Shown here piece after piece: positions 13,080-54,000 of a stretch of DNA of 64,000 nucleotides. The first letter of the stretch is position 1; each line of letters opens with the position of its first letter. The notes beneath the pieces were generated by a model. It ran no database searches and had not been told where the DNA came from. It saw only the letters and a program-made list of their open reading frames with translations. The DNA is from Planctomycetota bacterium (GTDB lineage Bacteria > Planctomycetota > MHYJ01 > WSZJ01): assembly GCA_016190145.1 (NCBI GenBank), contig JACPRD010000130.1, positions 6,528 to 70,527 of the forward strand, read 5' to 3'. A program made the position numbers and the translations under genes.

Positions 13080-13469
13080 TATATGACACAATCCCGCCCC
13101 TGTCAAGCTCCCGCCTGGTCCCACGGATTCCCCCGAACCTTTCCACCCCCGCCCGCGATGAACTCTCTGTCGCCCGGCGCCACGGGACCGTAGGTCAACA
13201 GGAGATCGCCCGGCTGTGGCCCAGGAGACGTCGGTGCAACCCCGACCGGTCCCTTGAAAGGACGGCGCATGCCAGACGACGGAAGTGCGAATCGCCCCGA
13301 AGCGATCCCGCACCAACGATTGTCCAGACGCAGGTCCCGAAACCCGCTCGTTTGCGGGTCGAGAGGCTCTTTGACATCCGGCGGACTTTCCCAGGGCCGG
13401 CCCCCGGCCCCCATTCTCTCCCCTTCTCTCGGGGCCGGGGACCGGTCCGATTCTCTCTCTTCCCTCGCC

Positions 13470-13542
13470 TGGGGTGTCGTCTAACGGCTGAGGACGGCGG
13501 CCTCTCACGCTGCAGATGCAGGTTCAACTCCTGTCACCCCGA
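13470..13542 (+). tRNA. tRNA-Glu(CUC)
   Basis: Manual cloverleaf. Acceptor TGGGGTG/CACCCCG; D GTCT/GGAC; AC GCGGC-CTCTCAC-GCTGC (anticodon 13504-13506); T GCAGG-TTCAACT-CCTGT. No CCA. Confidence 0.8.
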
Positions 13543-13652
13543 TTCGGGAAGCGGAACGGAGGCCCGCGCTGCGGCGCCGGAGCGATGTCCCGGTATTCCC
13601 GAGGCAGTCCACCGGCGCCTCCGCGCGGGCCCCACGTTCCGCTTCCCGAATC
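13541..13652 (+). repeat. inter-tRNA GC-rich extended hairpin element H1
   Basis: 18-bp basal stem GATTCGGGAAGCGGAACG / CGTTCCGCTTCCCGAATC. Inner stems GGCCCGCGC/GCGCGGGCC and GGCGCCGG/CCGGCGCC. First nt is nt 72 of tRNA-Glu. Confidence 0.75.
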
Positions 13653-13671
13653 GGCGTAAAAAGAAAAGCAC

Positions 13672-13744
13672 GTCCTGGTAGCTCAACCAGAAGAGCGCCA
13701 GTCTCCGAAGCTGGAGGGTGCAGGCGCGAATCCTGCCCAGGACA
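13672..13744 (+). tRNA. tRNA-Arg(CCG), atypical T and D loops
   Basis: Acceptor GTCCTGG/CCAGGAC; AC CCAGT-CTCCGAA-GCTGG (anticodon 13705-13707); T GCAGG-CGCGAAT-CCTGC (C54 G55). D loop AACCAGAA lacks GG. Confidence 0.65.
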
Positions 13745-13748
13745 TCTC

Positions 13749-13819
13749 TGCGGGATGGATCAGGAGTTGATCGGCGGTCTCATAAGCCGCAAAGGAGGGT
13801 GCAAGTCCCTCTCCCGCTA
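13749..13819 (+). tRNA. tRNA-Met(CAU), initiator-like
   Basis: Acceptor TGCGGGA/TCCCGCT with a 1:72 U.U mismatch; D stem GATC/GATC (A11:U24); AC GCGGT-CTCATAA-GCCGC (anticodon 13781-13783); T GAGGG-TGCAAGT-CCCTC (G55); A73. Confidence 0.65.
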
Positions 13820-13822
13820 TCT

Positions 13823-13919
13823 TCAATTCGGGAGTCGTGAGACGCGCGCTGGACGCGAGAGGCGCGCGCAAGGTGCGCGCCTCGAGCGGCCGGCGCACGG
13901 CTCGCGACTCCCGAATTGA
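13823..13919 (+). repeat. inter-tRNA GC-rich extended hairpin element H2
   Basis: Basal stem TCAATTCGGGAGTCG / CGACTCCCGAATTGA. Inner hairpin GAGGCGCGC-GCAAGGT-GCGCGCCTC. Ends 1 nt before tRNA-Cys. Confidence 0.75.
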
Positions 13920-13920
13920 G

Positions 13921-13994
13921 GCGCGTGTGCCCGAGTGGTCGAAGGGTCCGGTTTGCAAAATCGGAATCCGCTGGTTCGAATCCAGCCGCGCGCT
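13921..13994 (+). tRNA. tRNA-Cys(GCA)
   Basis: Acceptor GCGCGTG/CGCGCGC; AC CCGGT-TTGCAAA-ATCGG (anticodon 13955-13957); T GCTGG-TTCGAAT-CCAGC. Confidence 0.85.
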
Positions 13995-14002
13995 TTCTCG
14001 CA

Positions 14003-14074
14003 CGGGCTGTAGCGCAGGGGAAGCGCGCTTCGTTGGGGTCGAAGAGGTCGGAAGTTCGAACCTTCCCAGCCCGA
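14003..14074 (+). tRNA. tRNA-Pro(GGG)
   Basis: Acceptor CGGGCTG/CAGCCCG (C1:G72); D GCGC/GCGC; AC CTTCG-TTGGGGT-CGAAG (anticodon 14035-14037); T GGAAG-TTCGAAC-CTTCC. Confidence 0.85.
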
Positions 14075-14080
14075 TATTTC

Positions 14081-14154
14081 GGGGGCGTCGTCTAGGGGCT
14101 CAGGACACCGCCCTGTCACGGCGGAGACCACGGGTTCAAATCCCGTCGCCCTCG
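14081..14154 (+). tRNA. tRNA-Asp(GUC)
   Basis: Acceptor GGGGGCG/CGCCCTC; D GTCT/GGAC; AC CCGCC-CTGTCAC-GGCGG (anticodon 14115-14117); T ACGGG-TTCAAAT-CCCGT. Confidence 0.85.
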
Positions 14155-14156
14155 TT

Positions 14157-14257
14157 TCGATGCGCGCAGCGCTCCGCAGAGGCGGCGGTCGCACGTCGGC
14201 CCGGCTGCGCCGGGCCTCGCGCGACCGCTCGCCCCTGCTACGCGCCGCGCGCATCGA
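14157..14257 (+). repeat. inter-tRNA GC-rich extended hairpin element H3 (same subfamily as H8)
   Basis: Basal stem TCGATGCGCGC / GCGCGCATCGA. Apical hairpin GGCCCGGC-TGC-GCCGGGCC. Shares the CGCTCGCCCCTGCT segment with H8. Starts 3 nt after tRNA-Asp. Confidence 0.75.
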
Positions 14258-14278
14258 CGGAACGGCAAGGAAATGCAA

Positions 14279-14351
14279 AGGGGTGTGGGCTAACCGGTAA
14301 GTCACCTCCCTGTTAAGGAGGTTGATCCAGGTTCGAATCCTGGTGCCCCTG
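14279..14351 (+). tRNA. tRNA-Asn(GUU)
   Basis: Acceptor AGGGGTG/TGCCCCT; AC CCTCC-CTGTTAA-GGAGG (anticodon 14312-14314); T CCAGG-TTCGAAT-CCTGG. Confidence 0.8.
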
Positions 14352-14363
14352 TTCGTTTTCGAA

Positions 14364-14453
14364 GGGATTCGCGCGGGTCCAGGACTGCCTGTGCCTTCGT
14401 TGAGCCAAGTTGGACCGTGACCCTGACGGGCGACGCACGGCCCGCCGAATCCC
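14364..14453 (+). repeat. degenerate inter-tRNA hairpin element H3b
   Basis: Basal stem GGGATTCG(C)GCGGG / CCCGC(C)GAATCCC with one bulge on each strand. Interior pairs only partially (GGTCC...GGACC). Confidence 0.45.
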
Positions 14454-14465
14454 CACGCAAACCAC

Positions 14466-14556
14466 GGATGGTTGGCAGAGCCCGGCTTAATGCGCCTGTC
14501 TCGAAAACAGGAGCTCCTGAAACACGGAGCCGGAGGTTCGAATCCTCCACCATCCT
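14466..14556 (+). tRNA. tRNA-Ser(CGA), class II
   Basis: Acceptor GGATGGT/ACCATCC; AC CCTGT-CTCGAAA-ACAGG (anticodon 14502-14504); long variable arm GCTCC...GGAGC; T GGAGG-TTCGAAT-CCTCC. Confidence 0.85.
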
Positions 14557-14560
14557 TCCA

Positions 14561-14649
14561 GGGGAGATGGCCGAGCGGTTGAAGGCACCGCGGTGCTAAC
14601 GCGGCGGGCCCCCTCGGGGGCCCCGAAGGTTCGAATCCTTCTCTTCCCG
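14561..14649 (+). tRNA. tRNA-Ser(GCU), class II
   Basis: Acceptor GGGGAGA/TCTTCCC; AC CCGCG-GTGCTAA-CGCGG (anticodon 14595-14597); long variable arm GGGCCCCC-TC-GGGGGCCC; T GAAGG-TTCGAAT-CCTTC. Confidence 0.85.
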
Positions 14650-14660
14650 TCCAATCTCCC

Positions 14661-14732
14661 GGGGGCGTGGCCGACCGGCAAGGCACCTGCCCGGCAGGCA
14701 GGACCACGAGGGTTCAAGTCCCTCCGCTTCCA
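14661..14732 (+). tRNA. tRNA-Ala(GGC) with C33
   Basis: Acceptor GGGGGCG/CGCTTCC including G3:U70; AC CCTGC-CCGGCAG-GCAGG (anticodon 14693-14695, position 33 = C); T GAGGG-TTCAAGT-CCCTC. Confidence 0.7.
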
Positions 14733-14744
14733 TCCGCTCGACAA

Positions 14745-14816
14745 GGGGGTGTGGCCTAACGGCAAGGCACCTGCGTCGCAAGCAGGAGTATGAGGGTTCA
14801 AATCCCTCCACTTCCA
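14745..14816 (+). tRNA. tRNA-Ala(CGC)
   Basis: Acceptor GGGGGTG/CACTTCC including G3:U70; AC CCTGC-GTCGCAA-GCAGG (anticodon 14777-14779); T GAGGG-TTCAAAT-CCCTC. Confidence 0.8.
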
Positions 14817-14821
14817 TCCGA

Positions 14822-14892
14822 AGGGGCGTCGTTCAGCAGGAGGACCCCGGTTTCCAAGTCCGGTGACGAGGGTGCAATTCCTTCCGCCCCTG
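14822..14892 (+). tRNA. tRNA-Trp(CCA), atypical T loop
   Basis: Acceptor AGGGGCG/CGCCCCT; AC CCGGT-TTCCAAG-TCCGG (31:39 U.U; anticodon 14854-14856); T GAGGG-TGCAATT-CCTTC (G55). Confidence 0.65.
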
Positions 14893-14911
14893 TTGTCAGC
14901 CCGCCGTTCCT

Positions 14912-15013
14912 CCAATTCGAGGCTTGCGGAGAGGGACGGCACGAGCGCGCCCCCGAGCGCGCAGCACGAGGGGCGTGCGCGAGCGCCGGGCCTCGCAGCG
15001 AGTTTCGAATTGG
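14912..15013 (+). repeat. inter-tRNA GC-rich extended hairpin element H4 (same subfamily as H5)
   Basis: Basal stem CCAATTCGA / TCGAATTGG, extended by G.U-rich pairing. 50-nt core at 14938-14987 is 49/50 identical to 15446-15495. Last nt is nt 1 of tRNA-Glu(UUC). Confidence 0.75.
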
Positions 15014-15083
15014 GGCGCGTCGGCTAGTGGAAGGCCCCCAGGCTTTCATCCTGACAGCGCGGGTTCGATTCCCGCCGCGCCTA
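15013..15083 (+). tRNA. tRNA-Glu(UUC)
   Basis: Acceptor GGGCGCG/CGCGCCT; AC CCAGG-CTTTCAT-CCTGA (27:43 C.A; anticodon 15045-15047); T GCGGG-TTCGATT-CCCGC. Confidence 0.8.
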
Positions 15084-15090
15084 TCTGTGA

Positions 15091-15163
15091 AGGAGCGTCG
15101 CTTAGTGGTTGAGCACCGGTTTCTTAAACCGGACGAGGAAGGGTTCGAATCCCTCCGCTCCTA
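15091..15163 (+). tRNA. tRNA-Lys(CUU)
   Basis: Acceptor AGGAGCG/CGCTCCT; AC CCGGT-TTCTTAA-ACCGG (anticodon 15123-15125); T AAGGG-TTCGAAT-CCCTC with a 49:65 A.C mismatch or a bulged A. Confidence 0.75.
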
Positions 15164-15167
15164 TCCC

Positions 15168-15239
15168 GGGGTTGTAGCTCAAAGGCCGAGCACCTGTTTT
15201 TTAAGCAGAGAGATGTGGGTTCGATCCCCACCGGCCCCA
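15168..15239 (+). tRNA. tRNA-Lys(UUU)
   Basis: Acceptor GGGGTTG/CGGCCCC; D GCTC/GAGC; AC CCTGT-TTTTTAA-GCAGA (anticodon 15200-15202); T GTGGG-TTCGATC-CCCAC. Confidence 0.8.
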
Positions 15240-15250
15240 TTCGGTCCAAG

Positions 15251-15322
15251 AGGGGAGTCAGGTAACTGGTAACCACCGAGTCCCTGAAACTCGCCATGCT
15301 GGTTCGAATCCAGCCTCCCCTA
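15251..15322 (+). tRNA. tRNA-Gln(CUG) with C33
   Basis: Acceptor AGGGGAG/CTCCCCT; AC CGAGT-CCCTGAA-ACTCG (anticodon 15284-15286, position 33 = C); T GCTGG-TTCGAAT-CCAGC. Confidence 0.7.
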
Positions 15323-15332
15323 TGAAAAACGC

Positions 15333-15403
15333 GGGCACGTAGGCTAACGGCAGGCCACCAGGTTCTCAGCCTGACAGCGAGGGTTCGATTCCCTCCGTGC
15401 CTA
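15333..15403 (+). tRNA. tRNA-Glu(CUC), paralog of the tRNA at 15013
   Basis: Acceptor GGGCACG/CGTGCCT; AC CCAGG-TTCTCAG-CCTGA (anticodon 15365-15367); T GAGGG-TTCGATT-CCCTC. Confidence 0.8.
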
Positions 15404-15419
15404 TCTGAAAGCCCTTCCT

Positions 15420-15521
15420 CTCGATTCGAGGAGCGGGAGGTGAAGGGCACGAGCGCGCCCCCGAGCGCGCAGCGCGAGGGGCGTGCGCGAGCGCCCTTCA
15501 CCGGACGCTCCTCGAATCGAG
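15420..15521 (+). repeat. inter-tRNA GC-rich extended hairpin element H5 (same subfamily as H4)
   Basis: 16-bp basal stem CTCGATTCGAGGAGCG / CGCTCCTCGAATCGAG. Inner stem GGTGAAGG/CCTTCACC encloses the conserved 50-nt core at 15446-15495. Last nt is nt 1 of tRNA-Phe. Confidence 0.8.
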
Positions 15522-15593
15522 GTGAAGTAGCTTAGACGGTCTGAGCGCCTGGTTGAAAACCAGGAGGCGGAGGTTCGATACCTCCCTTCACCA
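15521..15593 (+). tRNA. tRNA-Phe(GAA)
   Basis: Acceptor GGTGAAG/CTTCACC; AC CCTGG-TTGAAAA-CCAGG (anticodon 15555-15557); T GGAGG-TTCGATA-CCTCC. Confidence 0.85.
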
Positions 15594-15597
15594 TTGC

Positions 15598-15670
15598 GCG
15601 GGCGTCGTCCAACGGACCAGGACCCGAGACTACGAATCTCGAGATGAGGGTTCGATTCCTTCCGCCCGTA
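15598..15670 (+). tRNA. tRNA-Arg(ACG)
   Basis: Acceptor GCGGGCG/CGCCCGT; D GTCC/GGAC; AC CGAGA-CTACGAA-TCTCG (anticodon 15632-15634); T GAGGG-TTCGATT-CCTTC. Confidence 0.85.
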
Positions 15671-15673
15671 TCG

Positions 15674-15745
15674 CGGGGCGTGGCCGAGAAGAGAGGCTCC
15701 CGTTTCCTAAACGGGACCACGCAGGTGCGACTCCTGCCGTCCCGA
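15674..15745 (+). tRNA. tRNA-Arg(CCU), atypical T and D loops
   Basis: Acceptor CGGGGCG/CGTCCCG; AC CCCGT-TTCCTAA-ACGGG (anticodon 15706-15708); T GCAGG-TGCGACT-CCTGC (G55). D loop GAGAAGAGA has no GG. Confidence 0.65.
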
Positions 15746-15749
15746 CTTG

Positions 15750-15820
15750 GCTCCCGTCGTCCAGCGGAAGGGCCCCCGTCCTCTAAACGGGCGACGCAGG
15801 TTCGACCCCTGCCGGGAGCG
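15750..15820 (+). tRNA. tRNA-Arg(UCU) with C33
   Basis: Acceptor GCTCCCG/CGGGAGC; AC CCCGT-CCTCTAA-ACGGG (anticodon 15782-15784, position 33 = C); T GCAGG-TTCGACC-CCTGC. Confidence 0.7.
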
Positions 15821-15828
15821 TCATCCAA

Positions 15829-15909
15829 GGGCGTGTACGGAATGGGATAACCGCGCCGGCCGTAACCCGGCAGCCTCGCGCTTAGAAGGTTCGAGTCCTT
15901 CCGCGCCCA
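15829..15909 (+). tRNA. tRNA-Tyr(GUA), class II, with C33
   Basis: Acceptor GGGCGTG/CGCGCCC; AC GCCGG-CCGTAAC-CCGGC (anticodon 15862-15864, position 33 = C); 13-nt variable arm; T GAAGG-TTCGAGT-CCTTC. Confidence 0.75.
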
Positions 15910-15947
15910 TTGATCACGAGAGACTTCCAGGAAATGCTTTGCCTCCC

Positions 15948-16066
15948 AGAGTTTGAGAGAAAACCGGGATGGGGGGCGGAGTCGGCCGGCTCGTCCAGTC
16001 CCGGCCGCATCGTGGGCCTTCCTGCCGGCCGACGGAGCATCCCAGCCCGGTTTTCTCTCAAACTCT
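15948..16066 (+). repeat. inter-tRNA extended hairpin element H6
   Basis: Perfect 21-bp basal stem AGAGTTTGAGAGAAAACCGGG / CCCGGTTTTCTCTCAAACTCT. Inner stem GTCGGCCGG/CCGGCCGAC. Ends 1 nt before tRNA-Gly(GCC). Confidence 0.8.
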
Positions 16067-16067
16067 T

Positions 16068-16139
16068 GCGGCTGTAGCTCAACGGCAGAGCGCCACGTTG
16101 CCAACGTGGATACTGCGGGTTCAAGCCCCGCCAGTCGCT
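16068..16139 (+). tRNA. tRNA-Gly(GCC)
   Basis: Acceptor GCGGCTG/CAGTCGC; D GCTC/GAGC; AC CCACG-TTGCCAA-CGTGG (anticodon 16100-16102); T GCGGG-TTCAAGC-CCCGC. Confidence 0.85.
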
Positions 16140-16145
16140 TTCTTT

Positions 16146-16219
16146 CAGGACGTAGCGGAGCCTGGTAACGCGCTTCGTTCGGGGCGAAGAGACCGGTGGT
16201 TCGAATCCACCCGTCCTGA
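16146..16219 (+). tRNA. tRNA-Pro(CGG)
   Basis: Acceptor CAGGACG/CGTCCTG (C1:G72); AC CTTCG-TTCGGGG-CGAAG (anticodon 16180-16182, G37); T GGTGG-TTCGAAT-CCACC. Confidence 0.85.
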
Positions 16220-16235
16220 TTTTCTCGGCAGACGC

Positions 16236-16308
16236 GCTTCTGTAGCCCAACGGAAGAGGCACCAAGCTCAGAACTTGGCGAGTGGAGGTTCGAATCCTCC
16301 CGGAAGCA
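16236..16308 (+). tRNA. class I (short variable arm) tRNA with Leu anticodon CAG
   Basis: Acceptor GCTTCTG/CGGAAGC; D arm TAGCCCAACGGAAGAGGC; AC CCAAG-CTCAGAA-CTTGG (anticodon 16269-16271); variable region only 5 nt (CGAGT); T GGAGG-TTCGAAT-CCTCC; A73. Confidence 0.7.
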
Positions 16309-16324
16309 TTTTGAATCTCAGAAC

Positions 16325-16395
16325 GGTCTCGTAGCTCAAAGGCAGAGCGCCGGTCTCACATACCGGTGACGGAGGTTCGAGTCCTTCCGGGACCA
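16325..16395 (+). tRNA. tRNA-Val(CAC)
   Basis: Acceptor GGTCTCG/CGGGACC; D GCTC/GAGC; AC CCGGT-CTCACAT-ACCGG (anticodon 16357-16359); T GGAGG-TTCGAGT-CCTTC. Confidence 0.85.
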
Positions 16396-16405
16396 TGGAC
16401 ACACG

Positions 16406-16477
16406 GCTCCTGTGGTCTAGCGGCCGGGCACCAGCGCGACATGCTGGGCAAGGCAGGTTCGACTCCTGCCGGGAGCA
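16406..16477 (+). tRNA. tRNA-Val(GAC) with G32 C33
   Basis: Acceptor GCTCCTG/CGGGAGC; AC CCAGC-GCGACAT-GCTGG (anticodon 16438-16440, position 33 = C); T GCAGG-TTCGACT-CCTGC. Confidence 0.7.
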
Positions 16478-16483
16478 CTTCAT

Positions 16484-16554
16484 GCCTCTCTAGTTCAATG
16501 GGAGAACCCCTGCTTCCCACGCAGGTGACGAGGGATCGATACCCTCGAGAGGCT
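16484..16554 (+). tRNA. tRNA-Gly(CCC), A54 T loop
   Basis: Acceptor GCCTCTC/GAGAGGC; D GTTC/GAAC; AC CCTGC-TTCCCAC-GCAGG (anticodon 16516-16518); T GAGGG-ATCGATA-CCCTC. Confidence 0.75.
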
Positions 16555-16558
16555 CTTG

Positions 16559-16629
16559 GCGCCTGTAGCTCAAGGGGAGAGCCCCCGCCCGATAAGCGGG
16601 AGATGCAGGTTCAAGTCCTGACTGGCGCA
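16559..16629 (+). tRNA. tRNA-Ile(GAU) with C33; two stem mismatches
   Basis: Acceptor GCGCCTG/CTGGCGC (6:67 U.U); AC CCCGC-CCGATAA-GCGGG (anticodon 16591-16593, position 33 = C); T GCAGG-TTCAAGT-CCTGA (49:65 G.A). Confidence 0.6.
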
Positions 16630-16673
16630 TTGAGACCCGGGAGGAGTTCCCGGACCGACTGCCTCGGCATCCC

Positions 16674-16775
16674 AGAGCGCGTGAACGATTCGATTGGAGG
16701 CGCGCGGCCGGGGCGAGCGACGCGAAGCGGCGCCAGGTCCGGCCCCCGCCGGAGATCGAGTCGTTCACGCGCTCT
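16674..16775 (+). repeat. inter-tRNA GC-rich extended hairpin element H7
   Basis: 15-bp basal stem AGAGCGCGTGAACGA / TCGTTCACGCGCTCT, continued by TTCGAT/ATCGAG pairing. The 3' arm overlaps the first 5 nt of tRNA-Thr (16771-16775). Confidence 0.75.
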
Positions 16776-16841
16776 TGTAGCTCAACGGTGAGCACCTGCC
16801 TCGTAAGCAGGGGGATGTGGGTTCGATTCCCACCAGGAGCT
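16771..16841 (+). tRNA. tRNA-Thr(CGU)
   Basis: Acceptor GCTCTTG/CAGGAGC; D GCTC/GAGC; AC CCTGC-CTCGTAA-GCAGG (anticodon 16802-16804); T GTGGG-TTCGATT-CCCAC. Confidence 0.85.
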
Positions 16842-16843
16842 TC

Positions 16844-16938
16844 GGAATCGCGCGCGCTTCGCAGGGGCGGCTCGCGCACGGCGGCCGGGCTTCGCCCGGC
16901 CTGGCGCGCTCGCTCGCCCCTGCTGCGCGCGCGATTTC
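16844..16938 (+). repeat. inter-tRNA GC-rich extended hairpin element H8 (same subfamily as H3)
   Basis: Basal stem GGAATCGCGCGCGC / GCGCGCGCGATTTC. Also GCAGGGGCG/CGCCCCTGC. Apical hairpin GGCCGGGC-TTC-GCCCGGCC. Starts 3 nt after tRNA-Thr. Confidence 0.8.
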
Positions 16939-16967
16939 GAAAAGGGAAAGGCGCCGGGAAGGAGAAG

Positions 16968-17040
16968 GCTCTCGTAGCCCAACGGCAGAGGCGGCGGTCT
17001 CAAGAACCGCGCGGTGCAGGTTCGAATCCTGCCGGGAGCA
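16968..17040 (+). tRNA. class I (short variable arm) tRNA with Leu anticodon CAA
   Basis: Acceptor GCTCTCG/CGGGAGC; D arm TAGCCCAACGGCAGAGGC; AC GCGGT-CTCAAGA-ACCGC (anticodon 17001-17003); 5-nt variable region (GCGGT); T GCAGG-TTCGAAT-CCTGC; A73. Confidence 0.7.
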
Positions 17041-17050
17041 TCGAAGAAAC

Positions 17051-17125
17051 GCCCTCGTAGCCCAATCTGGCAGAGGCCCATGGTTGAGGGCCATGGTGGT
17101 GATGGTTCGATTCCATCCGAGGGCA
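17051..17125 (+). tRNA. class I (short variable arm) tRNA with Leu anticodon GAG
   Basis: Acceptor GCCCTCG/CGAGGGC; D arm TAGCCCAATCTGGCAGAGGC; AC CATGG-TTGAGGG-CCATG (anticodon 17086-17088); 5-nt variable region (GTGGT); T GATGG-TTCGATT-CCATC; A73. Confidence 0.7.
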
Positions 17126-17248: not shown

Positions 17249-19810
17249 CTAAAGCCGCGGATCGACCGGCTCGCTTTCCAGTGCCAGGACGCCGAAAACA
17301 CATTCGTGGACGCGGCGAAGCGGCTCGTTGCGGACGAAACGCTCGAGCCCCTCGACTCCGAGGGCGAACTCCCTCATCGCAAGAGAACGCTTCGCGCCGA
17401 GGCCGCGGGAGCGGAGCCGACTCAGGTTCGCGGGGATCGAGTAGTCCGGGCCATAGATGATGCGGAGGTACTCGGGTCCGCGGCACTTGACGGCTGGTTG
17501 AGCGACTCCCCTCCGCCCCCGCGCGACGAAGTCCAGCGGCTTTACGACCATTCCCTCTCCACCGCGCGAAGTCAGTTCCTCCCACCAGCGGATCCCCGCC
17601 TGTTCGCTGGCCTCATCTGTGACATTGACCTCGATGAAACCGGTCTCGATGAGGATCTTGCTTCCCTTGCAGAATCGGGAGATGGCGCTCATGTGCCACA
17701 GGTGGTTCTTGTCGAAATACGTTTTCCCCTCGGTGGCCAGCACGTGGAACGGCGCCAGCTTGATGTCCGCCAGCGTCTTGACCGGCCAGCAGTACCCGCG
17801 ATAGGCGGTCACGTATTTCTCGGCGAGAGAAGCGCGTTCGACCGAGCGTTCCAGCAGCGAGGCGACGTCAGCTCCCCGCGCTGCTGCCGTTTTCAGTGTT
17901 TCGACCGAGTCCCTCAGCGCTGCCCCTGACGCCGCCCCGACGGCCGCGTACTGCCGCTTCACCAGCTCCTGGGCCTTCGCCGACCATGGCATCAGTTCGC
18001 AATCGAGGCAGACCCAATCCGTGTCGAATTCCTTCCAGGATTCTGAGCGGTCCAGCGCTTCCCGCAGATGCGCCAGCAGCTCTGTCTCAAACGCGAGATC
18101 TTCGAAGAAGCGGCGCCCGGTGCGAGTCACGCAGATGCCGCTTTCACTGACGATTCCGAATCTGCGACGGGCTGCGTCTTCATTGCGACAAAGCACCACG
18201 ACGACCCGTGATCCCATGTGCTTCTCTTCGCACAGCACCTGCGGAATTCCCTCGTGCCGGAAGTACGCGAAGGCCTGCGCCGGATGCTCCAGCAGACTCC
18301 CCTCCTGCGAGGTCTCCGGCGGCGACATGGTCGGCGGAAGGTAGATCAGCCACTTCGGGTTGGCTGCAAAGCGGCTCATGACCTCGAGCGCGGCGATCGC
18401 GTTCTCTTCGCGGATCGTCACGTTGTGATGGAGGCGCGTCGTCACGATCCTCTTCCCGATCACGTCCGCGAGGTCGAGCAGGTCGTCGTGGGCCTGCTGC
18501 GGGGAGAGCGCCTGAGTCTGGAATTCCGCCGGATGGAAGGGCTTCGCCGGTTTCGCGTACATGGCGCCCGCGGGGACTGAAACAAGCTCCTTCTCCGGGT
18601 AGCGAAGCGCCGTGAGCTTGCCGCCGAAAACGCAGCCGGTATCGATGTTGATCGTGTTGTTGAGCCACTCGGGCGCCGGCACGGGCGTGTGTCCGTAGAC
18701 GACCATGGACGGCCCGCGATACTCCGCGGCCCAGTTGTTGCGGACCGGCAGGCCGAATTCGTCGGTCTCCCCCGTCGTCTCGCCGTAGAGTGCGAACTCC
18801 CGCACCTTGCCGGAGCCTCGACCCTGCATGGTCTCTTTCATCCCGGCGTGCGCCACGACGAGCCCGTTGTCGTCGAGCACGTAGTGGGAGACCAGGTCGT
18901 CAATGAAGGCGGCCGTCTTCTCGCGAAATGCCGCCGGTTCGCGGTCCAGCTGCGCGAGGGATTCGGCAAGACCGTGGGTGATCTGCACGTCCTTGCCGCG
19001 GAGTTTCCGGAGCAGCTTGACGTCGTGGTTTCCCGGGACGCAAAGCGCGGTCCCGGCCTCCACCATGCCCATCACGAGCCGCAGCACGTCCGGAGTGTTC
19101 GGTCCACGATCGACGAGATCGCCCACGAAGACTGCTTTGCGATTCCCGGGCGGCTTCGCGGCAATTGTGCGCTCCCCAGTCGTCGTCACGTCGACGACAT
19201 ACCCGAGACGCTCAAGAAGCGCCTTCGTCTCGTCGAAGCAGCCGTGAATGTCCCCGATGATGTCGAACGGGCCATGATCGCTCTTCCGGTTGTTCCACAA
19301 CGGCTCTCGCTCGATGGTTGCCGCATCGATCTCTTCCGGGCTTGCCAGAACGTGGACGTGCCGGAAGCCTTCAACCTGAAGGTTCCGGAGCGATTTGCGA
19401 AGCTGCTGCGACTGCTGCCGGATGACATGTGGACCGAACGTGCGCTCACTACGCCCGCGGTTGCGGTCCTGGCACAGCCGTTCCGGAAGGTCCAGCACGA
19501 TCGCGACGGGCAGGCAATGGTAGTCCCGGGCCAGCGCGACGAGGGGTTTGCGCGCTTCGGCCTGGACGTTCGTCGCATCGATGACGGTGAGCTTGCCCGC
19601 CGCCAGGCGTTTTCCGGCGATGTAGTGCAGCACCTCAAAGGCCGCGTTCGTGGCAGCTTGATTGTTCTCGTCGTCCGACACGAGGCCGCGGCAGAAGTCT
19701 GAGGACAGGATCTCCGTCGGGAGAAAGTGCTTCCGCCCGAACGTGGACTTCCCGCTGCCCGAGGGGCCGATCAGGACAACGAGGGACAGCTCAGGTATTT
19801 TCAGTTTCAC
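17249..19810 (-). CDS. pnkp: polynucleotide kinase-phosphatase/ligase Pnkp (RNA repair)
   Basis: ORF 17249..19918 trimmed to GTG 19810, which overlaps the hen1 TGA (GTGA). Kinase P-loop GPSGSGKST. Metallophosphoesterase motifs GDIHGC, GDLVDRGP, GNHD. Nucleotidyltransferase-type Lys motif EEKHMGSR in the C-terminal ligase-like domain. 853 aa. Confidence 0.85.
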   Translation of the reverse strand: MKLKIPELSLVVLIGPSGSGKSTFGRKHFLPTEILSSDFCRGLVSDDENNQAATNAAFEVLHYIAGKRLAAGKLTVIDATNVQAEARKPLVALARDYHCLPVAIVLDLPERLCQDRNRGRSERTFGPHVIRQQSQQLRKSLRNLQVEGFRHVHVLASPEEIDAATIEREPLWNNRKSDHGPFDIIGDIHGCFDETKALLERLGYVVDVTTTGERTIAAKPPGNRKAVFVGDLVDRGPNTPDVLRLVMGMVEAGTALCVPGNHDVKLLRKLRGKDVQITHGLAESLAQLDREPAAFREKTAAFIDDLVSHYVLDDNGLVVAHAGMKETMQGRGSGKVREFALYGETTGETDEFGLPVRNNWAAEYRGPSMVVYGHTPVPAPEWLNNTINIDTGCVFGGKLTALRYPEKELVSVPAGAMYAKPAKPFHPAEFQTQALSPQQAHDDLLDLADVIGKRIVTTRLHHNVTIREENAIAALEVMSRFAANPKWLIYLPPTMSPPETSQEGSLLEHPAQAFAYFRHEGIPQVLCEEKHMGSRVVVVLCRNEDAARRRFGIVSESGICVTRTGRRFFEDLAFETELLAHLREALDRSESWKEFDTDWVCLDCELMPWSAKAQELVKRQYAAVGAASGAALRDSVETLKTAAARGADVASLLERSVERASLAEKYVTAYRGYCWPVKTLADIKLAPFHVLATEGKTYFDKNHLWHMSAISRFCKGSKILIETGFIEVNVTDEASEQAGIRWWEELTSRGGEGMVVKPLDFVARGRRGVAQPAVKCRGPEYLRIIYGPDYSIPANLSRLRSRGLGAKRSLAMREFALGVEGLERFVRNEPLRRVHECVFGVLALESEPVDPRL

Positions 19811-21204
19811 CGCGAGAACACCGCCATCTGGGTAGGCGCGCCGACGACGGCGTCCTCGGGGCCGACCGGAAGAATCCGAACTTGATACCCGGCACGGCTG
19901 GCGACACGTTCCGCCCACGCTCTGAAATCAACGCGCGACCATTCGAACCGGTGGTCCTTGTGACGAAACTGGCCGGCAGGAAGCGTCTCGAACTTCACGT
20001 TGTAGTCCGAGTTCGGCGTCGTGAGGACTACGAACCTGGGCTTCGCGTGCTCGAACAGCACGCGCTCGAACGCGTCGAGGCGACCCGGGTCCAGATGTTC
20101 CACGACCTCGATCAGTGCCGCGGCGTCGAACCCCTCGAGACGCTTGTCGCGATAGGTCAGCGATCCCTGGATGAGCTGCAGGCGCGCCTTCTGGATGTCC
20201 GGCATCCGCTCGAGCTTGAGCTTGTCACTCGCGAACTCGAGCGCGCGATGCGAGACGTCCATCCCCAGCACGCGCTCGAAGGTCTTGTCGGCCAGCAGGT
20301 CTCTGAGAAGACGGCCCTCGCCGCATCCGAGGTCCATGACGCTTTTCGCGCCCACTTCTCGAAGCACGGCGACGACTGCCCCCATCCGATGATCGTGAAG
20401 CCGGATCTTCTCTTCCAGCCCAGCTTCCTGCCTTGCCTGATTCTCCCGTGTCGATTCCAGTTCTTCGAGATCGTCGTCCACCAGCCGGGACAACGCGTCG
20501 CGACACAGGTCCCGCCGGTGCTTGAGGTAGCGACGGGCAATCGCGTCCTTCTCCGGATGCCCCGCCAGCCAGCCCTCGCCATGACGAAGCAGTTTCTCGA
20601 CCTCGTCCTCACCGACCCAGTAGTGCTTTGAGTTGTCCAGCACCGGAACCAGCACGTAGAGGTGGCTCAGCAGCTCTTGGAGCATGCGCGTGCCCTGGAG
20701 GTGGAGCGTGAAGTACACACTGTCGCCCCATTCCGGAAAGGTCGGGTCGAGGGAGTGCGGTTCGACGCTGACACGATAGCCGAGCGGCTCGAAGAGAGAC
20801 CGCAGGAACGCCTCGCCGCCGCGGCAGGGGATGACCGAGAGCGTGGCTTCAAGTTTCAGGGGCTTTGACGCCAGCTCCGGCCTCTCCTTGCTTCGCCCGG
20901 CGAGCGCGGAGCCGAAGATCTGCGCGATCGCGACGCTCAGGAACGAAGAAGCAACGTAGGGCCGATCATTCACGTACTGGTCGAGCGAGTGGCCTTCGCC
21001 GCTGCCGGGCTTCCCCCGCACGAGGCCGATCGGGTCGATCTCGAGCAGGAGCGCTGCCGTGCAGCGCTGCTCCGCCGCTTCGGGGTAGAAGACGTGCGCT
21101 TTGCCGAATGAAAGGTCGAAGGACTGCGCGCGAGCAGGATTCTTGTGAAGGAGAAACCCCAGATCCGTGGCTGGAAACGTGGAAGTGGTGATGGTGAGCA
21201 ACAT
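19807..21204 (-). CDS. hen1: RNA 3'-terminal ribose 2'-O-methyltransferase Hen1
   Basis: 465-aa ORF. N-terminus MLLTITTSTFPATDLGFLLHKNPAR is typical of bacterial Hen1. C-terminal SAM motif VMDLGCGEGRLL. Immediately upstream of, and coupled to, pnkp. Confidence 0.85.
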   Translation of the reverse strand: MLLTITTSTFPATDLGFLLHKNPARAQSFDLSFGKAHVFYPEAAEQRCTAALLLEIDPIGLVRGKPGSGEGHSLDQYVNDRPYVASSFLSVAIAQIFGSALAGRSKERPELASKPLKLEATLSVIPCRGGEAFLRSLFEPLGYRVSVEPHSLDPTFPEWGDSVYFTLHLQGTRMLQELLSHLYVLVPVLDNSKHYWVGEDEVEKLLRHGEGWLAGHPEKDAIARRYLKHRRDLCRDALSRLVDDDLEELESTRENQARQEAGLEEKIRLHDHRMGAVVAVLREVGAKSVMDLGCGEGRLLRDLLADKTFERVLGMDVSHRALEFASDKLKLERMPDIQKARLQLIQGSLTYRDKRLEGFDAAALIEVVEHLDPGRLDAFERVLFEHAKPRFVVLTTPNSDYNVKFETLPAGQFRHKDHRFEWSRVDFRAWAERVASRAGYQVRILPVGPEDAVVGAPTQMAVFSR

Positions 21205-50885: not shown

Positions 50886-51035
50886 CGGGGGACTCCTTGA
50901 GGGAAAGCGGGCGTTCGGGGGCGCCATCGTGCCGGGCTTGCGAAGATGTGTCAATGCGTCCGGACGGCTGCGGATTATTTCTGCGGACTTTTCGCGGCTC
51001 CGCCGTCGTATAGGCATCAACCCGGGAGGAACGAG

Positions 51036-54000
51036 ATGACGGAATATGAACGCCTGGTTCGGGACCATCACGGGCTCGTGTACCGGCTCGCGCTGGGTGT
51101 CCTGAGGGACGGTCCGGCGGCCGAGGACGTCGCCCAGGAGGTCTTCCTGGACATCCTGCGGCGGCCCGCGGCGTGGAAGGACGTCCGGGATCCGAAGGCT
51201 TTCCTCGGGCGCGCGGCGATCAACCGCGCGATTCAGGCGATCCGGGAGCGGAGCCGCCGGGCGCGCCGCGAGCGGGAGGCCGGGGAGAGGAGGGCGGAGA
51301 TGGCAAACTCGGAGAGTCCTTTCCGCAGCGAGGTGCGCACGCAGGTGGCGGGCCTCCCCGCGGAGGAGCGGATGGTCGTCGAGCTGCACTTCATGGAAGG
51401 ATTCACTCTTCGCGAGACGGCCGCAACACTCGAAATCTCGGAGCGGACCGTGTCAACCCGGGTCGCGGACGCGCTCGCCCGGCTGCGGCGGCTGCTGGCG
51501 GCGGGGGCTTTCGCGGGAATGCTGGCGATGCTGGAGTCGGAGCTCGCGAACTGCGCCGCAGCGCCGCCGGCCGGGCTTTCGGAAAGGCTGCGGAAGCTGG
51601 AGTCGGGGGCGGGGCGGAGCCGCGCGCACCGCATCACGCGGGTCGCCGGTGTCGCGGTGGCCGTGTCGGTGATGGTCGCGCTGGTCTCGTGGCTGGCGAT
51701 GCGCGGAGGGACCGGCCGCGGCGGCGAAGGCCCGGCGATTTCGGACCTTGGAGGCGAAGCGGATCGGGACGCCGCCGCGCGCGCGGTGGTCGCGGGCGGT
51801 CCGGGCGCGGCGGAGCCGGGAAGCGGCGGGACCGGGGATCCGAGGGAGAGTGCGCCGGGCGTGGCCGTCCGCGTCCAGGTCGTCGACGCGGAAGGACGGC
51901 CGCTTCCAGGACGCGAAGTCGACGTGTGGCGTGACGGCGGGGCCGGCGCGAGTGGGGTGCTGGGGCGGTCGAAGACGGACGCGGCCGGCCTCTGCGAGGT
52001 GGAGGAGATTCCGCCGCTGACGCAGATCTCGGTGGAGGTGAGTCTGGGCGCCGGGACGGTTCGTGACGGCGCCCGGCGTGTGGCCACGCCGGAGAGCGGC
52101 CGGATCGAGGTTCGTATCCAGTTGCGCGTGCGCCGGATCAGGGGGCATGTGGCGGACATTCGGACGGGGGCGCCGATTCCAGGGGCCGAGGTCTGGATGG
52201 GCCTCCAGGGCGGGGGGCTGGAATTCGTGCGGGAGTCCTCGCGGGTCCTGACCGATGCGGAGGGCCGGTACGGAATCGAGACGGCGATGGACGAGAATAG
52301 CTGGTTCAAACTGTTCGCGCGGGCCGAGGGATACGCGACAAGGCCGGATAATCTCATGCACTTTCACTCGGGAGCAGACGAGGAGATCGTGGACCTCATG
52401 CTCGCGCGCGGCGCGGCGGCTCGGGGACGGATCGTCGACGGTTCGGGAACGCCGATCGCGGGGGCGCGACTGCTGTGCCAGAGAACGCCGGGCTGCCACG
52501 AGATCCCGGCGCACGTCGCGGAATCGGAGCAGGATGGAGGATTCGTGCTCGAGGGGCTGGCGGCCGGGCAGGACCACGTCGTTCACGTCCGGGGCCGAGG
52601 ATTCGCGGGCGTCTCAATTCACTTCAAGTCGCCGGAAGAGGGCGGTGACGTGGCTGACCTGGGGGATCTGGCCGTCGGGGCCGCCGGCTGGGTCGGAGGG
52701 AGGGTGCTCACGGCGTCCGGCGAGCCGATGCCGGGCATCGCGGTGACTCTCGGGGGATTTCCGCAGATCCTGTCGCGCGCGGACAAGTCCATTTCAGGCG
52801 AGGTGAGCGGAAGCGCGCGGACCCGCGACTCCGGATCGACGGACGCCTCCGGGCGGTTCAGGTTTGAAGATCTCCCGCCCGGGACCTACGTGCTGATGAC
52901 TGCCCAGCCGGGATTGCCGGCGTACCGATCCGAGTTGAGTCTGCCGCCCGGGGGACACCAGGATGGAATTGAGATCCGCATGCCTGCCGGCCGATTCGTC
53001 ACCGTCCATGTCCTCGACGACCATGGGCGCCCGCTGCCGGGAATCGTCGTCTCCTGTTCGCGGCCCTGGCTCGAGGCGCGCACGGATGTTCTCGGCGACG
53101 CCCGATTCCTGGTCTCAGGCTCCGAAGCCGAATTCGACCTCGGCCGGATCGAAATCGTCAGCGTTCTCGACGGTCGCGGGCCGGACCAGGTCCCGATGTT
53201 CACTCCTCCCGCGCAGCGGCTCCCGGCCGGCGCCCGCGAGCTCACGTTCGTCTTCCGTCGCGCCGGGATGACGGAAGGATTCGCTCTGGACCCCGACGGC
53301 AATCCCCTCGCGTTCGCGGAGCTGGACGTCTTCGCGGGAGGCCGCCGGCTCCGGACGCTCCTGACCGACGAAGCCGGCAGATTCCAGGTCCTCTCCACCG
53401 CCGGCGAAGCGGTGGACTTCATCCTCGCCGGACGGGTCGAAGGCCCCGCCAACGGGTTCCGTCTGGTCGACGGAGAAGTCCGGGGCGTCGCGTGCGGAAC
53501 CGAGAGAGTCCGCCTGCAGGCCCGCTGGGCGGCCACTCGGACGCTGCGGGTCCGGGTCCGGGACGGCAACGGCAGTGCCATCGCCGGCGCACGGGTCCAC
53601 CCCGTCCTCCCGGGCGAAAACGAGTCCGGAATGCGCCACTACGCCGTCTGGACCCGCGAATACCCGTTCATCCGGGGCCTCTCCCGCAATTCCTGGAAGT
53701 CGGCCGAAGGCACCGGTACTCTGACCGACGATGAAGGGCTGGCCGTTCTCCACGATCTCCCGGATCGTGACCTGGCGATCCACGCCGTCCTCGCGGACGC
53801 CTCATGGCTGCCGGCATCGCTGGCGGGCGTCCGGCCGGCCGGACAGGAAGTCGAACTCCGGATGAGGCCGGGGCTGGTCGTCTCCGGACAGGTCGTGAGC
53901 GGCGACGGAGCGCCACTCGAAGATCCCTGGGTGTCCGCCTGGGCCGGACAATCCAAGGTCGCCGGCGTCCGCTGCGACAAGGACGGCTTCTTCCGATTCC

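Follow-up and report, generated by a model that had tools for sequence, protein, structure and literature searches.

Three short-arm tRNA genes with leucine anticodons in a long tRNA array of a Planctomycetota bacterium are probably type I tRNALeu

RESULTS

Leucine tRNA genes in a long tRNA array

We examined three tRNA genes with leucine anticodons that lie in a tRNA array within a 64,000-nt stretch of bacterial DNA, referred to here as the window. We conclude, with a probability of about 85%, that they are genuine type I (class I) tRNALeu, carried by an accessory long tRNA array (L-array) that a high-GC Gram-negative bacterium probably acquired horizontally. The three genes are most likely ordinary leucine adaptors rather than signs of a changed genetic code. 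They join a short-arm Leu family that is widespread and already documented in actinobacteria, phages and mobile tRNA clusters. The features discussed below are as follows; scores are given for the Rfam tRNA model RF00005 (gathering score 29) and for a covariance model, R1, built from 90 family members with the window sequences left out.

13184..17125, all on the + strand: long tRNA array, 33 genes (31 by ARAGORN, two added by Rfam)
14466-14556, + strand: class II tRNA-Ser, 91 nt
14561-14649, + strand: class II tRNA-Ser, 89 nt
15829-15909, + strand: class II tRNA-Tyr, 81 nt
16236..16308, + strand: type I tRNA-Leu(CAG), found by ARAGORN; Rfam 60.2 bits, R1 82.3 bits
16968..17040, + strand: type I tRNA-Leu(CAA), found by ARAGORN; Rfam 55.4 bits, R1 85.0 bits
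17051..17125, + strand: type I tRNA-Leu(GAG), found by ARAGORN; Rfam 49.7 bits, R1 75.2 bits

The coordinates returned by ARAGORN for the three genes are identical to those of the original prediction, which had put the size of the array at 31. This number is corrected to 33 by Rfam, which adds a His-anticodon tRNA (13184-13254) and a Trp tRNA (14822-14892), so that all 20 isotypes are represented. With 33 co-oriented tRNAs in 3.94 kb (8.4 per kb), the array has the size, density and uniform orientation of a long array (at least 20 tRNA genes, at least 2 per kb, same orientation). CCA is not encoded in any of the 33 tRNAs. Inverted-repeat analysis showed that long, GC-rich palindromic spacers split the array into blocks, and its anticodon set is skewed to G34/C34, in keeping with a high-GC host. 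Other tRNAs of the array carry canonical identity elements, namely G3:U70 in Ala, A1-U72 and G73 in Trp and C1-G72 in Pro. The long arms of the Ser and Tyr tRNAs, which had been described as kept, are likewise canonical. Neither ARAGORN nor Rfam found a further tRNA-Leu in the array, class II included, in agreement with the original prediction.

A Pnkp-Hen1 RNA-repair operon adjoins the array. A conserved linkage between the two was considered and rejected, since none of 80 related metagenomic Pnkp loci (64-72% identity) has a tRNA array beside it; we regard the adjacency as chance at this locus or as particular to the lineage. The array was probably acquired horizontally; indirect signs are its GC content of 0.646, compared with 0.65-0.75 in the flanking DNA, and the lack of an array at the 80 Pnkp loci. 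No homing or HNH endonuclease was identified beside the array among the ORFs outside ∼5.6-13 kb.

Structure of the three tRNAs

The shared D arm, A73, anticodon loops and 5-nt variable regions originally reported for these genes were borne out by both the structure parse and the alignment to the model. The CAG, CAA and GAG tRNA genes are 73, 73 and 75 nt long, respectively, and have 7-bp acceptor stems. Their anticodon loops (CUCAGAA, CUCAAGA and UUGAGGG) are 7 nt long with U33 present, and their T loops are UUCGAAU, UUCGAAU and UUCGAUU. The CAG tRNA has the variable loop CGAGU and the D arm GCCCAACGGAAGAGGC, the CAA tRNA has GCGGU and GCCCAACGGCAGAGGC, and the GAG tRNA has GUGGU and GCCCAAUCUGGCAGAGGC. 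Common to the three is the D arm GCC-C-AA..GG.AG-A-GGC. All of them show the Leu-type arrangement of U8 and A9, the pairs G10-C25, C11-G24 and C12-G23, C13.A22, A14 and A15, G18G19 and an AGA loop end, together with U48 (the partner of A15) and A73. The canonical cloverleaf and the conserved tertiary nucleotides are thus intact in each.

No refolding gives a long variable arm that might have been missed: at 73-75 nt the genes are too short to hold one, and three independent tools fit them to a class I cloverleaf. A canonical class II tRNALeu has an arm stem-loop of at least 10 nt and a gene of ∼83-90 nt, and none of the three is of this kind. We also considered A15-U48 together with A73 as a Leu-specific mark within the array and dropped it, because the Arg(CCG) and Ala(CGC) tRNAs have both. 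The assignment to leucine rests instead on the D-arm architecture and on the whole-body model, to which the other 30 tRNAs of the array score no higher than 57.4 bits.

At position 37 the CAG tRNA has A37, where CUN readers usually have G37 (m1G37). The CAA and GAG tRNAs have G37, and both variants recur elsewhere in the family. The CAA tRNA matches, in blastn searches, tRNA-Leu genes of 71-77 nt from Streptomyces and Corynebacterium phages. Matches at 85% to tRNA-Trp(CCA) genes of some Corynebacterium phages raised the possibility of a tRNA-Trp origin for it. This was rejected: that tRNA-Trp has an ordinary GCUC/GAGC D stem, and its likeness to the CAA tRNA is limited to the anticodon stem and T arm. 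The array's own Trp tRNA is a different, canonical one.

The three genes had been called clear paralogs. They are paralogs in the sense of belonging to one family but not recent duplicates, since their mutual identity (71-81%) is no higher than their identity to family members in other genomes (77-84%).

A family of type I tRNALeu

We scanned viral contigs and bacterial genomes with an anticodon-independent D-arm motif, TAGCCCAA-N(1-5)-GGNAGAGGC, which all three tRNAs of the array match. Among the matches listed, viral and bacterial together, 222 of 228 motif-bearing tRNAs have Leu anticodons, with all six types present, so that the similar tRNAs whose search had been proposed at the outset do exist in phage and bacterial collections. 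The proportion was 114/118 in viral contigs (TAA 46, TAG 33, CAA 23, GAG 6, AAG 5 and CAG 1 among the matches listed) and 108/110 among the matches listed from bacterial genomes. Every motif-bearing tRNA among the matches listed is 72-79 nt long. The bacterial matches listed are mostly solitary chromosomal genes of Actinomycetota, with ∼90 actinobacterial species carrying the D-arm family; the remaining matches listed belong either to tRNA clusters of phages or to long arrays in several further phyla. At least three Planctomycetota MAGs carry class I tRNA-Leu(UAA) as a solitary gene, and a CAG/UAA/GAG class I Leu trio is present at another locus. No class I tRNA-Leu was matched in the chromosomes or prophages of 5,426 complete E. 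coli genomes.

Of the 222 family members listed, 215 have A73 and 216 have U48; variable loops of 5 nt (158 members) outnumber those of 4 nt (50) and 6 nt (14). In an alignment of 90 family sequences, A35 and A73 never vary, pairing holds in 99% of stem cells and compensatory changes occur at 17 of 20 pairs. Class II tRNA-Leu genes of the same phage loci (80-91 nt) have the same D-arm architecture as the class I genes (GUGGCGGAAuuGGCAGACGC versus GUAGCCCAAuuGGCAGAGGC), and a class II-type D arm persists in some class I members. These features are consistent with descent of the type I family from class II tRNALeu with the D-arm architecture kept.

The premise that all known bacterial tRNA-Leu are class II is contradicted by the leucylated type I tRNALeu(CAA) of Streptomyces coelicolor (PMC6614811), by phage records and by these scans. 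GenBank phage records already annotate many tRNA-Leu genes of 73-78 nt. In the open-access literature searched, type I tRNALeu figures as a peculiarity of Streptomyces, and apart from Fan et al. (2019) we found no paper there that explicitly describes class I tRNA-Leu of phages or arrays. The scans show a broader spread: in many Actinomycetota, type I is the standard form for one or more Leu isoacceptors. It is also the prevailing form of tRNA-Leu in the phage clusters and bacterial L-arrays of several phyla retrieved here, a sample selected by the motif.

Leucine codons and alternative explanations

The missing long arm was the sole prompt for a different explanation, in which the three tRNAs are charged with another amino acid and CUG, UUG and CUY are recoded or ambiguously decoded; the odd position 37 of the CAG and CAA tRNAs adds weakly to it. 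CUG-Ser in yeasts and the mistranslating tRNAPro variants of Streptomyces would be parallels. We compared the adjacent Pnkp and Hen1 genes with 80 homologs and found that their CTG, CTC and TTG codons align with Leu at 76-95% of residues, and not with a non-standard amino acid. Leu codons therefore have their standard meaning in this genome. They make up 10.3% of all codons in 20 window genes, and the GAG, CAG and CAA anticodons read 98.8% of them; with such a share, reassignment would rewrite the proteome. Moreover, one tRNA body bears UAA, CAA, UAG, CAG, GAG and AAG anticodons across hundreds of genomes. Since leucine is the sole amino acid that unites the UUR and CUN boxes, this body points to leucine. 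A recoding tRNA would combine a non-Leu body with a Leu anticodon, and here the body itself scores as the Leu family. None of the three tRNAs has the G3:U70 of Ala or the long arm and G73 of Ser. Other synthetases generally read the anticodon for identity and should reject NAG and CAA (PMC9976931), and a type I tRNALeu is leucylated in vitro (PMC6614811). We consider recoding very improbable.

It is also conceivable, though in our view quite unlikely, that the genes are not used in translation at all, being cryptic or silent cargo of a transferred array, decaying pseudogenes, or uncharged tRNAs that act as decoys or sponges for nucleases attacking tRNA, with a host leucyl-tRNA synthetase (LeuRS) that is not competent to charge them. 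The L-arrays of Acidithiobacillus, and that of Anabaena before induction, are reported to be cryptic and poorly expressed (PMC8421152). There are LeuRS enzymes that do not charge a type I tRNALeu (PMC6614811), and tRNA arrays are discussed as putative anti-defence elements (PMC12803027). The Pnkp-Hen1 operon that abuts the array could be read in the same way, but that adjacency is not kept at the 80 related loci. Nothing in the sequence favours the decoys of the original prediction: stems and tertiary nucleotides are intact, the R1 scores of 75-85 bits give no hint of decay, and the anticodons fit the Leu codon usage of the host. The solitary class I tRNA-Leu genes occur in probable relatives of the host phylum, where they imply a competent LeuRS; a TIM protein encoded in the window shares 76% identity with that of a MAG labelled Planctomycetia. 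The L-array tRNAs of Anabaena are usable when induced: in Anabaena PCC 7120, 23 of 26 tRNAs of the L-array were aminoacylated in vivo and present on polysomes (PMC8421152). This array (the trn operon) holds four class I-length Leu genes, so at least one class I Leu tRNA must be charged in Anabaena. Of the possibilities originally raised, the one favoured by the coupling of tRNA body to Leu anticodons across the family, by the model and by the precedents is therefore that of Leu tRNAs recognized without a long arm.

DISCUSSION

As type I tRNALeu, the three tRNAs would be transcribed with the array and processed, and CCA would be added by a host enzyme. Host LeuRS may then charge them with leucine, leaving the anticodon unread and the long arm unneeded. 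It would contact the acceptor end and the D-arm/elbow architecture kept from class II tRNALeu, that is, U8-A14, A15-U48, G18G19, a 3-bp D stem with N13.A22 and the AGA tail of the D loop. The codons CUG, UUG and CUC/CUU would thereby be decoded as leucine. E. coli LeuRS can dispense with both the long arm and the anticodon, but A73, A15-U48, G18G19 and A20a are important to it (PMC9976931). The LeuRS of S. coelicolor leucylates its own type I tRNALeu(CAA) with a kcat/Km of 6.25 s-1 uM-1, compared with 14.2 for the type II tRNA (PMC6614811). Charging of the type I tRNA requires a feature of the leucine-specific domain of LeuRS, and E. coli LeuRS and one Streptomyces LeuRS fail to charge it (Fan et al. 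2019, PMC6614811); competence of the host LeuRS, which is not among the genes of the window, is therefore not guaranteed.

A Leu anticodon on a short-arm tRNA is no ground for proposing codon reassignment, and an isotype mismatch flagged at such genes by annotation pipelines would mislead. Two questions arise from the family, namely the range of LeuRS enzymes able to accept type I tRNALeu and the reason why mobile tRNA sets favour the arm-less form. A speculative answer to the latter, which we regard as unlikely, is that loss of the arm in phage and mobile-array tRNALeu is an anti-defence adaptation, evading nucleases that recognize or cut the class II variable arm or loop. Only Leu would shed its arm, because LeuRS alone tolerates the loss and Ser and Tyr must keep theirs. 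SerRS relies on the long variable arm, as bacterial TyrRS reportedly does. If this were true, the neighbouring Pnkp-Hen1 repair operon would share a counter-ribotoxin logic with the array.

The closest single tRNA is the type I tRNALeu(CAA) of S. coelicolor (PMC6614811), which also has a Leu anticodon, a 5-nt variable loop, A73, U8-A14 and G18G19. To judge by its ACAGC variable loop only, it would belong to the same D-arm family, although its position 48 is C, compared with U in the Leu tRNAs of the array. In S. coelicolor, as would be the case here, one cell contains a type I tRNALeu alongside class II tRNAs, and a bacterial LeuRS leucylates the type I tRNA. There it is the product of a single chromosomal housekeeping-type gene reading UUG, and the actinomycete has class II tRNALeu as well. 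In the present array, unlike in S. coelicolor, there are three isoacceptors, two of which (CAG and GAG) are CUN readers, and they are clustered in a non-actinobacterial genome. Animal mitochondrial tRNALeu is also type I and lacks the long arm, and LeuRS recognition there is via A73 and A14 (PMC9976931); it is nevertheless an independent lineage with degenerate elbows and no sequence relationship to the bacterial and phage family. Human mt-tRNALeu(UUR) is not a substrate of S. coelicolor LeuRS (PMC6614811).

Phage class I tRNA-Leu share with the three tRNAs the D-arm signature, A73 and Leu anticodons, have variable loops of 4-6 nt and are often accompanied by class II Ser and Tyr. Carriers are mycobacteriophages, Streptomyces phage WRightOn, Corynebacterium phage Lederberg, E. 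coli phage vB_EcoM_I14.1, Pseudomonas phage ZC08, Prochlorococcus phage P-SSM7 and Lactobacillus phage LP65. Many phage copies encode the 3′ CCA and many of the loci add a class II tRNA-Leu. In contrast, the genes in the window lie in a bacterial chromosome region and leave CCA unencoded.

As a whole, the locus resembles the L-arrays (PMC8421152; Tran et al. 2016, PMC4758250), with dozens of dense, co-oriented tRNA genes in which Ser and Tyr are class II. L-array genes are supernumerary to the core set (PMC8421152, PMC4758250), and a housekeeping set of class II tRNALeu is presumably encoded elsewhere in this genome. All Leu genes are class I in the arrays that we examined, which come from Anabaena, Nostoc, Elusimicrobia, Acidobacteriota, Polyangiaceae and Hyphomicrobiaceae and were themselves retrieved by the class I Leu motif. 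The array described here is set apart from other L-arrays by its Pnkp-Hen1 neighbour, its long GC-rich palindromic spacers and its G34/C34 bias.

Three short-arm leucine tRNAs in a tRNA gene array

ARAGORN identified 31 tRNA genes at 13470-17125, all on the + strand, and the general tRNA model of Rfam added two more, giving 33 genes in 3.9 kb. ARAGORN, Rfam and a cloverleaf parse all confirmed, at the same coordinates, the three short-arm tRNAs with leucine anticodons that had been proposed from the sequence. As the original prediction had also stated, no class II (long variable arm) tRNA-Leu was found in the array by any of these approaches, while its Ser tRNAs (91 and 89 nt) and Tyr tRNA (81 nt) keep long arms.

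Leucine tRNAs and the two genes added by Rfam
16236-16308, +, tRNA-Leu(CAG); ARAGORN; Rfam 60.2 bits; variable loop CGAGU
16968-17040, +, tRNA-Leu(CAA); ARAGORN; Rfam 55.4 bits; variable loop GCGGU
17051-17125, +, tRNA-Leu(GAG); ARAGORN; Rfam 49.7 bits; variable loop GUGGU
13184-13254, +, tRNA with His GUG anticodon; Rfam only, anticodon by hand parse
14822-14892, +, tRNA-Trp, CCA, A1-U72, G73; Rfam only, canonical-looking

The three leucine tRNAs are canonical cloverleafs with 5-nt variable loops, A73, no encoded CCA and a common D arm, GCC-C-AA..GG.AG-A-GGC. Their earlier description as clear paralogs needs one nuance: their pairwise identity of 71-81% is no higher than that to relatives elsewhere. 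The tRNA at 13184-13254 has C at position -1 (no G-1), U73 and an odd T loop, UGCAACC, which makes its histidine identity doubtful. When both Rfam-added genes are counted, this doubtful one included, each of the 20 amino acids is represented in the array.

Nine long GC-rich imperfect palindromes (~55-140 nt, arms 72-95% complementary) split the array into blocks: 13394-13448, 13529-13664, 13823-13919, 14157-14257, 14912-15013, 15414-15527, 15948-16066, 16674-16775 and 16841-16941. TTCGAAT/ATTCGA-like words are frequent in the outer arms, and two palindromes have a near-identical core in common, around 14938-14990 and 15445-15500. Possible roles are as processing signals or attenuators; they could also form a mobile palindromic element.

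Membership in a type I tRNALeu family

A blastn comparison of the array with GenBank phages matched the CAA tRNA to genes of 71-77 nt annotated as tRNA-Leu in Streptomyces and Corynebacterium phages, which share its D arm and A73. Larger collections were scanned by the D-arm motif alone, TAGCCCAA-N(1-5)-GGNAGAGGC, which contains no anticodon information; the counts that follow are samples of the matches listed, not totals. Among the matches listed in IMG/VR contigs, the motif occurs in at least 118 tRNAs, 114 of the 118 with Leu anticodons (UAA 46, UAG 33, CAA 23, GAG 6, AAG 5, CAG 1). Among those listed in bacteria, with one genome per species, it occurs in at least 110 tRNAs, 108 of the 110 with Leu anticodons; the other two share a CCCCCUAAAAGGG loop, which ARAGORN calls UAA in sister genes. 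Every motif-bearing tRNA listed in either scan is 72-79 nt long. Since one tRNA body bears both UUR- and CUN-box anticodons, leucine identity fits and other amino acids are hard to reconcile.

In a sample of 222 family members from the matches listed, 215 have A73 and 216 have U48. An alignment of 90 sequences, from which the window tRNAs were excluded, has A14, A15, G18, G19, A35, T54, T55, C56, A58 and A73 invariant; its stem cells are 99% paired, with compensatory changes in 17 of 20 pairs, the three invariant pairs being the D stem that served for retrieval. As the nearest substitute for isotype-specific scoring, a covariance model from this alignment gave the three window tRNAs 85.0, 82.3 and 75.2 bits, compared with 57.4 bits at best for the other 30 tRNAs of the array. 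Judged by these scores, the three belong firmly to the type I tRNALeu family.

Compared with textbook E. coli tRNALeu, two of the three tRNAs have position 37 swapped: the CUG reader (16236-16308) carries A37 and consequently has no G36-G37 context for m1G37, and the UUG reader (16968-17040) carries G37 and consequently has no A37 for isopentenylation. Because both variants recur in the family (e.g. loops CUCAGAA/CUCAGAC and CUCAAGA), the swap characterises the family and does not indicate a defect.

Class II tRNA-Leu genes that share phage loci with class I genes have the D arm GUGGCGGAAuuGGCAGACGC, the class I form being GUAGCCCAAuuGGCAGAGGC. Both have a 3-bp stem, an N13.A22 mismatch, A14 A15, G18G19 and an AGA tail, and some class I genes still have the class II type of D arm. 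On these grounds the family looks like tRNALeu whose arm has been lost and not like a different isotype whose anticodon has mutated.

Distribution of the family

About 90 of 120 bacterial loci among the matches listed are solitary chromosomal genes of Actinomycetota, including Gordonia, Nocardia, Mycobacterium, Rhodococcus, Corynebacterium, Arthrobacter, Microbacterium, Nocardioides, Amycolatopsis and Acidimicrobiales. The family also occurs in tRNA arrays of other phyla; in the bacterial arrays found via the motif, a motif-selected and hence biased census, all Leu genes are class I and Ser and Tyr are class II.

Bacterial tRNA arrays with class I tRNA-Leu
Polyangiaceae, 20 tRNAs in the locus
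Nostoc, 25 tRNAs in the locus
Elusimicrobia, 27 tRNAs in the locus
Acidobacteriota, 34 tRNAs in the locus
Hyphomicrobiaceae, 21 tRNAs in the locus
Planctomycetota

Class I tRNA-Leu(UAA) also occurs as a solitary gene in Planctomycetota MAGs, one of which has a CAG/UAA/GAG trio. Genes of this type, with existing tRNA-Leu annotations, are present in cultured phages of E. coli, Pseudomonas, Prochlorococcus, Lactobacillus, Mycobacterium, Streptomyces, Rhodococcus and Gordonia. No class I tRNA-Leu was found in E. coli chromosomes (5,426 complete genomes). We found no account of the family's breadth in phages and arrays in the open-access literature.

In closely related Corynebacterium phages of the genus Samwavirus, one slot between an RtcB-like ligase and an HNH endonuclease holds either class I tRNA-Leu(CAA), as in Lederberg (598-674 of locus L002), StAB and Adelaide, or tRNA-Trp(CCA) with a different D arm, as in Dina (596-670 of locus L003), Stiles and SamW. 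This looks like cassette-like tRNA replacement. Four loci from Streptomyces, Nocardia and a Polyangiales MAG (L141, - strand, ~1537; L229, - strand, ~7073; L243, - strand, ~6700; L126, 4110) have only the first third of a class I tRNA-Leu, the acceptor 5' strand and D arm, followed by a conserved stretch ..CAATCTCAGACTCTCGCTCCAG..CAGCATCGCCGCCGATCGCCGG.. that replaces the remainder. They may represent what remains of the attachment sites of integrated elements; alternatively, they may be an unrecognised element whose 5' end resembles a tRNA.

Genomic surroundings

The window comes from a bacterial chromosome and contains ordinary genes, among them those for MiaB, FtsK, a molybdopterin oxidoreductase with an NrfD-type subunit, triosephosphate isomerase, YicC and an aldehyde dehydrogenase. 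Among named relatives of the triosephosphate isomerase, the best (76% identity) is from a MAG labelled Planctomycetia, the remaining named matches being near 60%. An ORF of 1066 aa at 50946-54146 (+) starts with an ECF-type sigma factor (regions 2 and 4) and continues with CarboxypepD_reg and Big_1 repeats over ~850 residues. For a sigma factor, such a C-terminal extension is unusually long.

The array is followed directly, on the opposite strand, by a bacterial RNA-repair pair:
17249-19918, -, Pnkp (kinase-phosphatase-ligase, 889 aa); PNKP_ligase 594 bits
19807-21204, -, Hen1 (465 aa); Hen1_L 385 bits

The end of this operon (17249-21204) is 124 bases from the last tRNA, in convergent orientation, and the GC content of array and operon is somewhat below that of the surroundings. 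An array lay beside Pnkp in 0 of 80 metagenomic Pnkp loci at 64-72% identity; the adjacency is not conserved. As anecdotal parallels, the class I tRNA-Leu of phage Lederberg adjoins the RtcB-like ligase, and that of Prochlorococcus phage P-SSM7 adjoins a gene annotated as tRNA ligase.

Probable decoding by the three tRNAs

If the three tRNAs were charged with another amino acid, CUG, UUG and CUY would be recoded, as the original prediction had considered. Among the aligned residues of 80 homologs of the adjacent Pnkp and Hen1, Leu accounts for 76-77% at CTG, 81% at CTC and 90-95% at TTG codons, and the other residues are mainly Ile, Val, Met and Phe. Across 20 window genes called with confidence, 10.3% of codons are Leu codons (CTC 48%, CTG 38.5%, CTT 10%, TTG 2.3%, CTA 0.9%, TTA 0.3%). 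Because anticodons GAG, CAG and CAA together cover 98.8% of these Leu codons, a translational role fits and reassignment is untenable. By parse, the three tRNAs lack G3:U70 and have neither the long arm nor the G73 required by SerRS; the tie of their body to UUR and CUN anticodons is what leucine identity predicts. This genome uses the standard code, and we consider charging with another amino acid extremely improbable. The suggestion that the tRNAs are decoys likewise found no support, and it is unlikely that they go unused in this host.

We favor, with a probability of roughly 85%, the reading that the three are ordinary leucine adaptors of a type I lineage, located in an accessory, probably horizontally acquired long tRNA gene array. 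The first option of the original prediction, Leu tRNAs recognised without a long arm, was essentially right. The tRNAs are probably expressed, and the host LeuRS would charge them by way of the acceptor end together with the D arm and elbow, which keep the Leu type; housekeeping class II tRNALeu presumably exists elsewhere in the genome. More speculatively, and with rather low odds, mobile tRNA sets might favor arm-less tRNALeu to escape nucleases aimed at the class II variable arm or loop. We know of no such nuclease for tRNALeu. For other tRNAs such nucleases are reported: Septu, which acts on tRNATyr (PMC13096335), and VapC52 (PMC13273310).

Comparison with known type I tRNALeu

The premise that every known bacterial tRNA-Leu belongs to class II proved incorrect. 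Streptomyces coelicolor has a tRNALeu(CAA) of type I, whose variable loop is 5 nt long as in the window tRNAs (Fan et al. 2019, PMC6614811). The organism's single LeuRS leucylates this tRNA with a kcat/Km of 6.25 s-1 uM-1, versus 14.2 for type II. With this enzyme, A14/U8 and a variable loop of 5 nt or more are important, and A73 is not. E. coli LeuRS and one other Streptomyces LeuRS do not charge it (PMC6614811). E. coli LeuRS requires A73, A15-U48, G18G19 and A20a, the anticodon and long arm being dispensable (PMC9976931). In the best-studied long tRNA array, the trn operon of Anabaena PCC 7120, four Leu genes have class I length, and one of them has the exact motif. In vivo, 23 of the 26 tRNAs of this operon are aminoacylated and present in polysomes (PMC8421152), so a cyanobacterium must charge at least one class I Leu tRNA.
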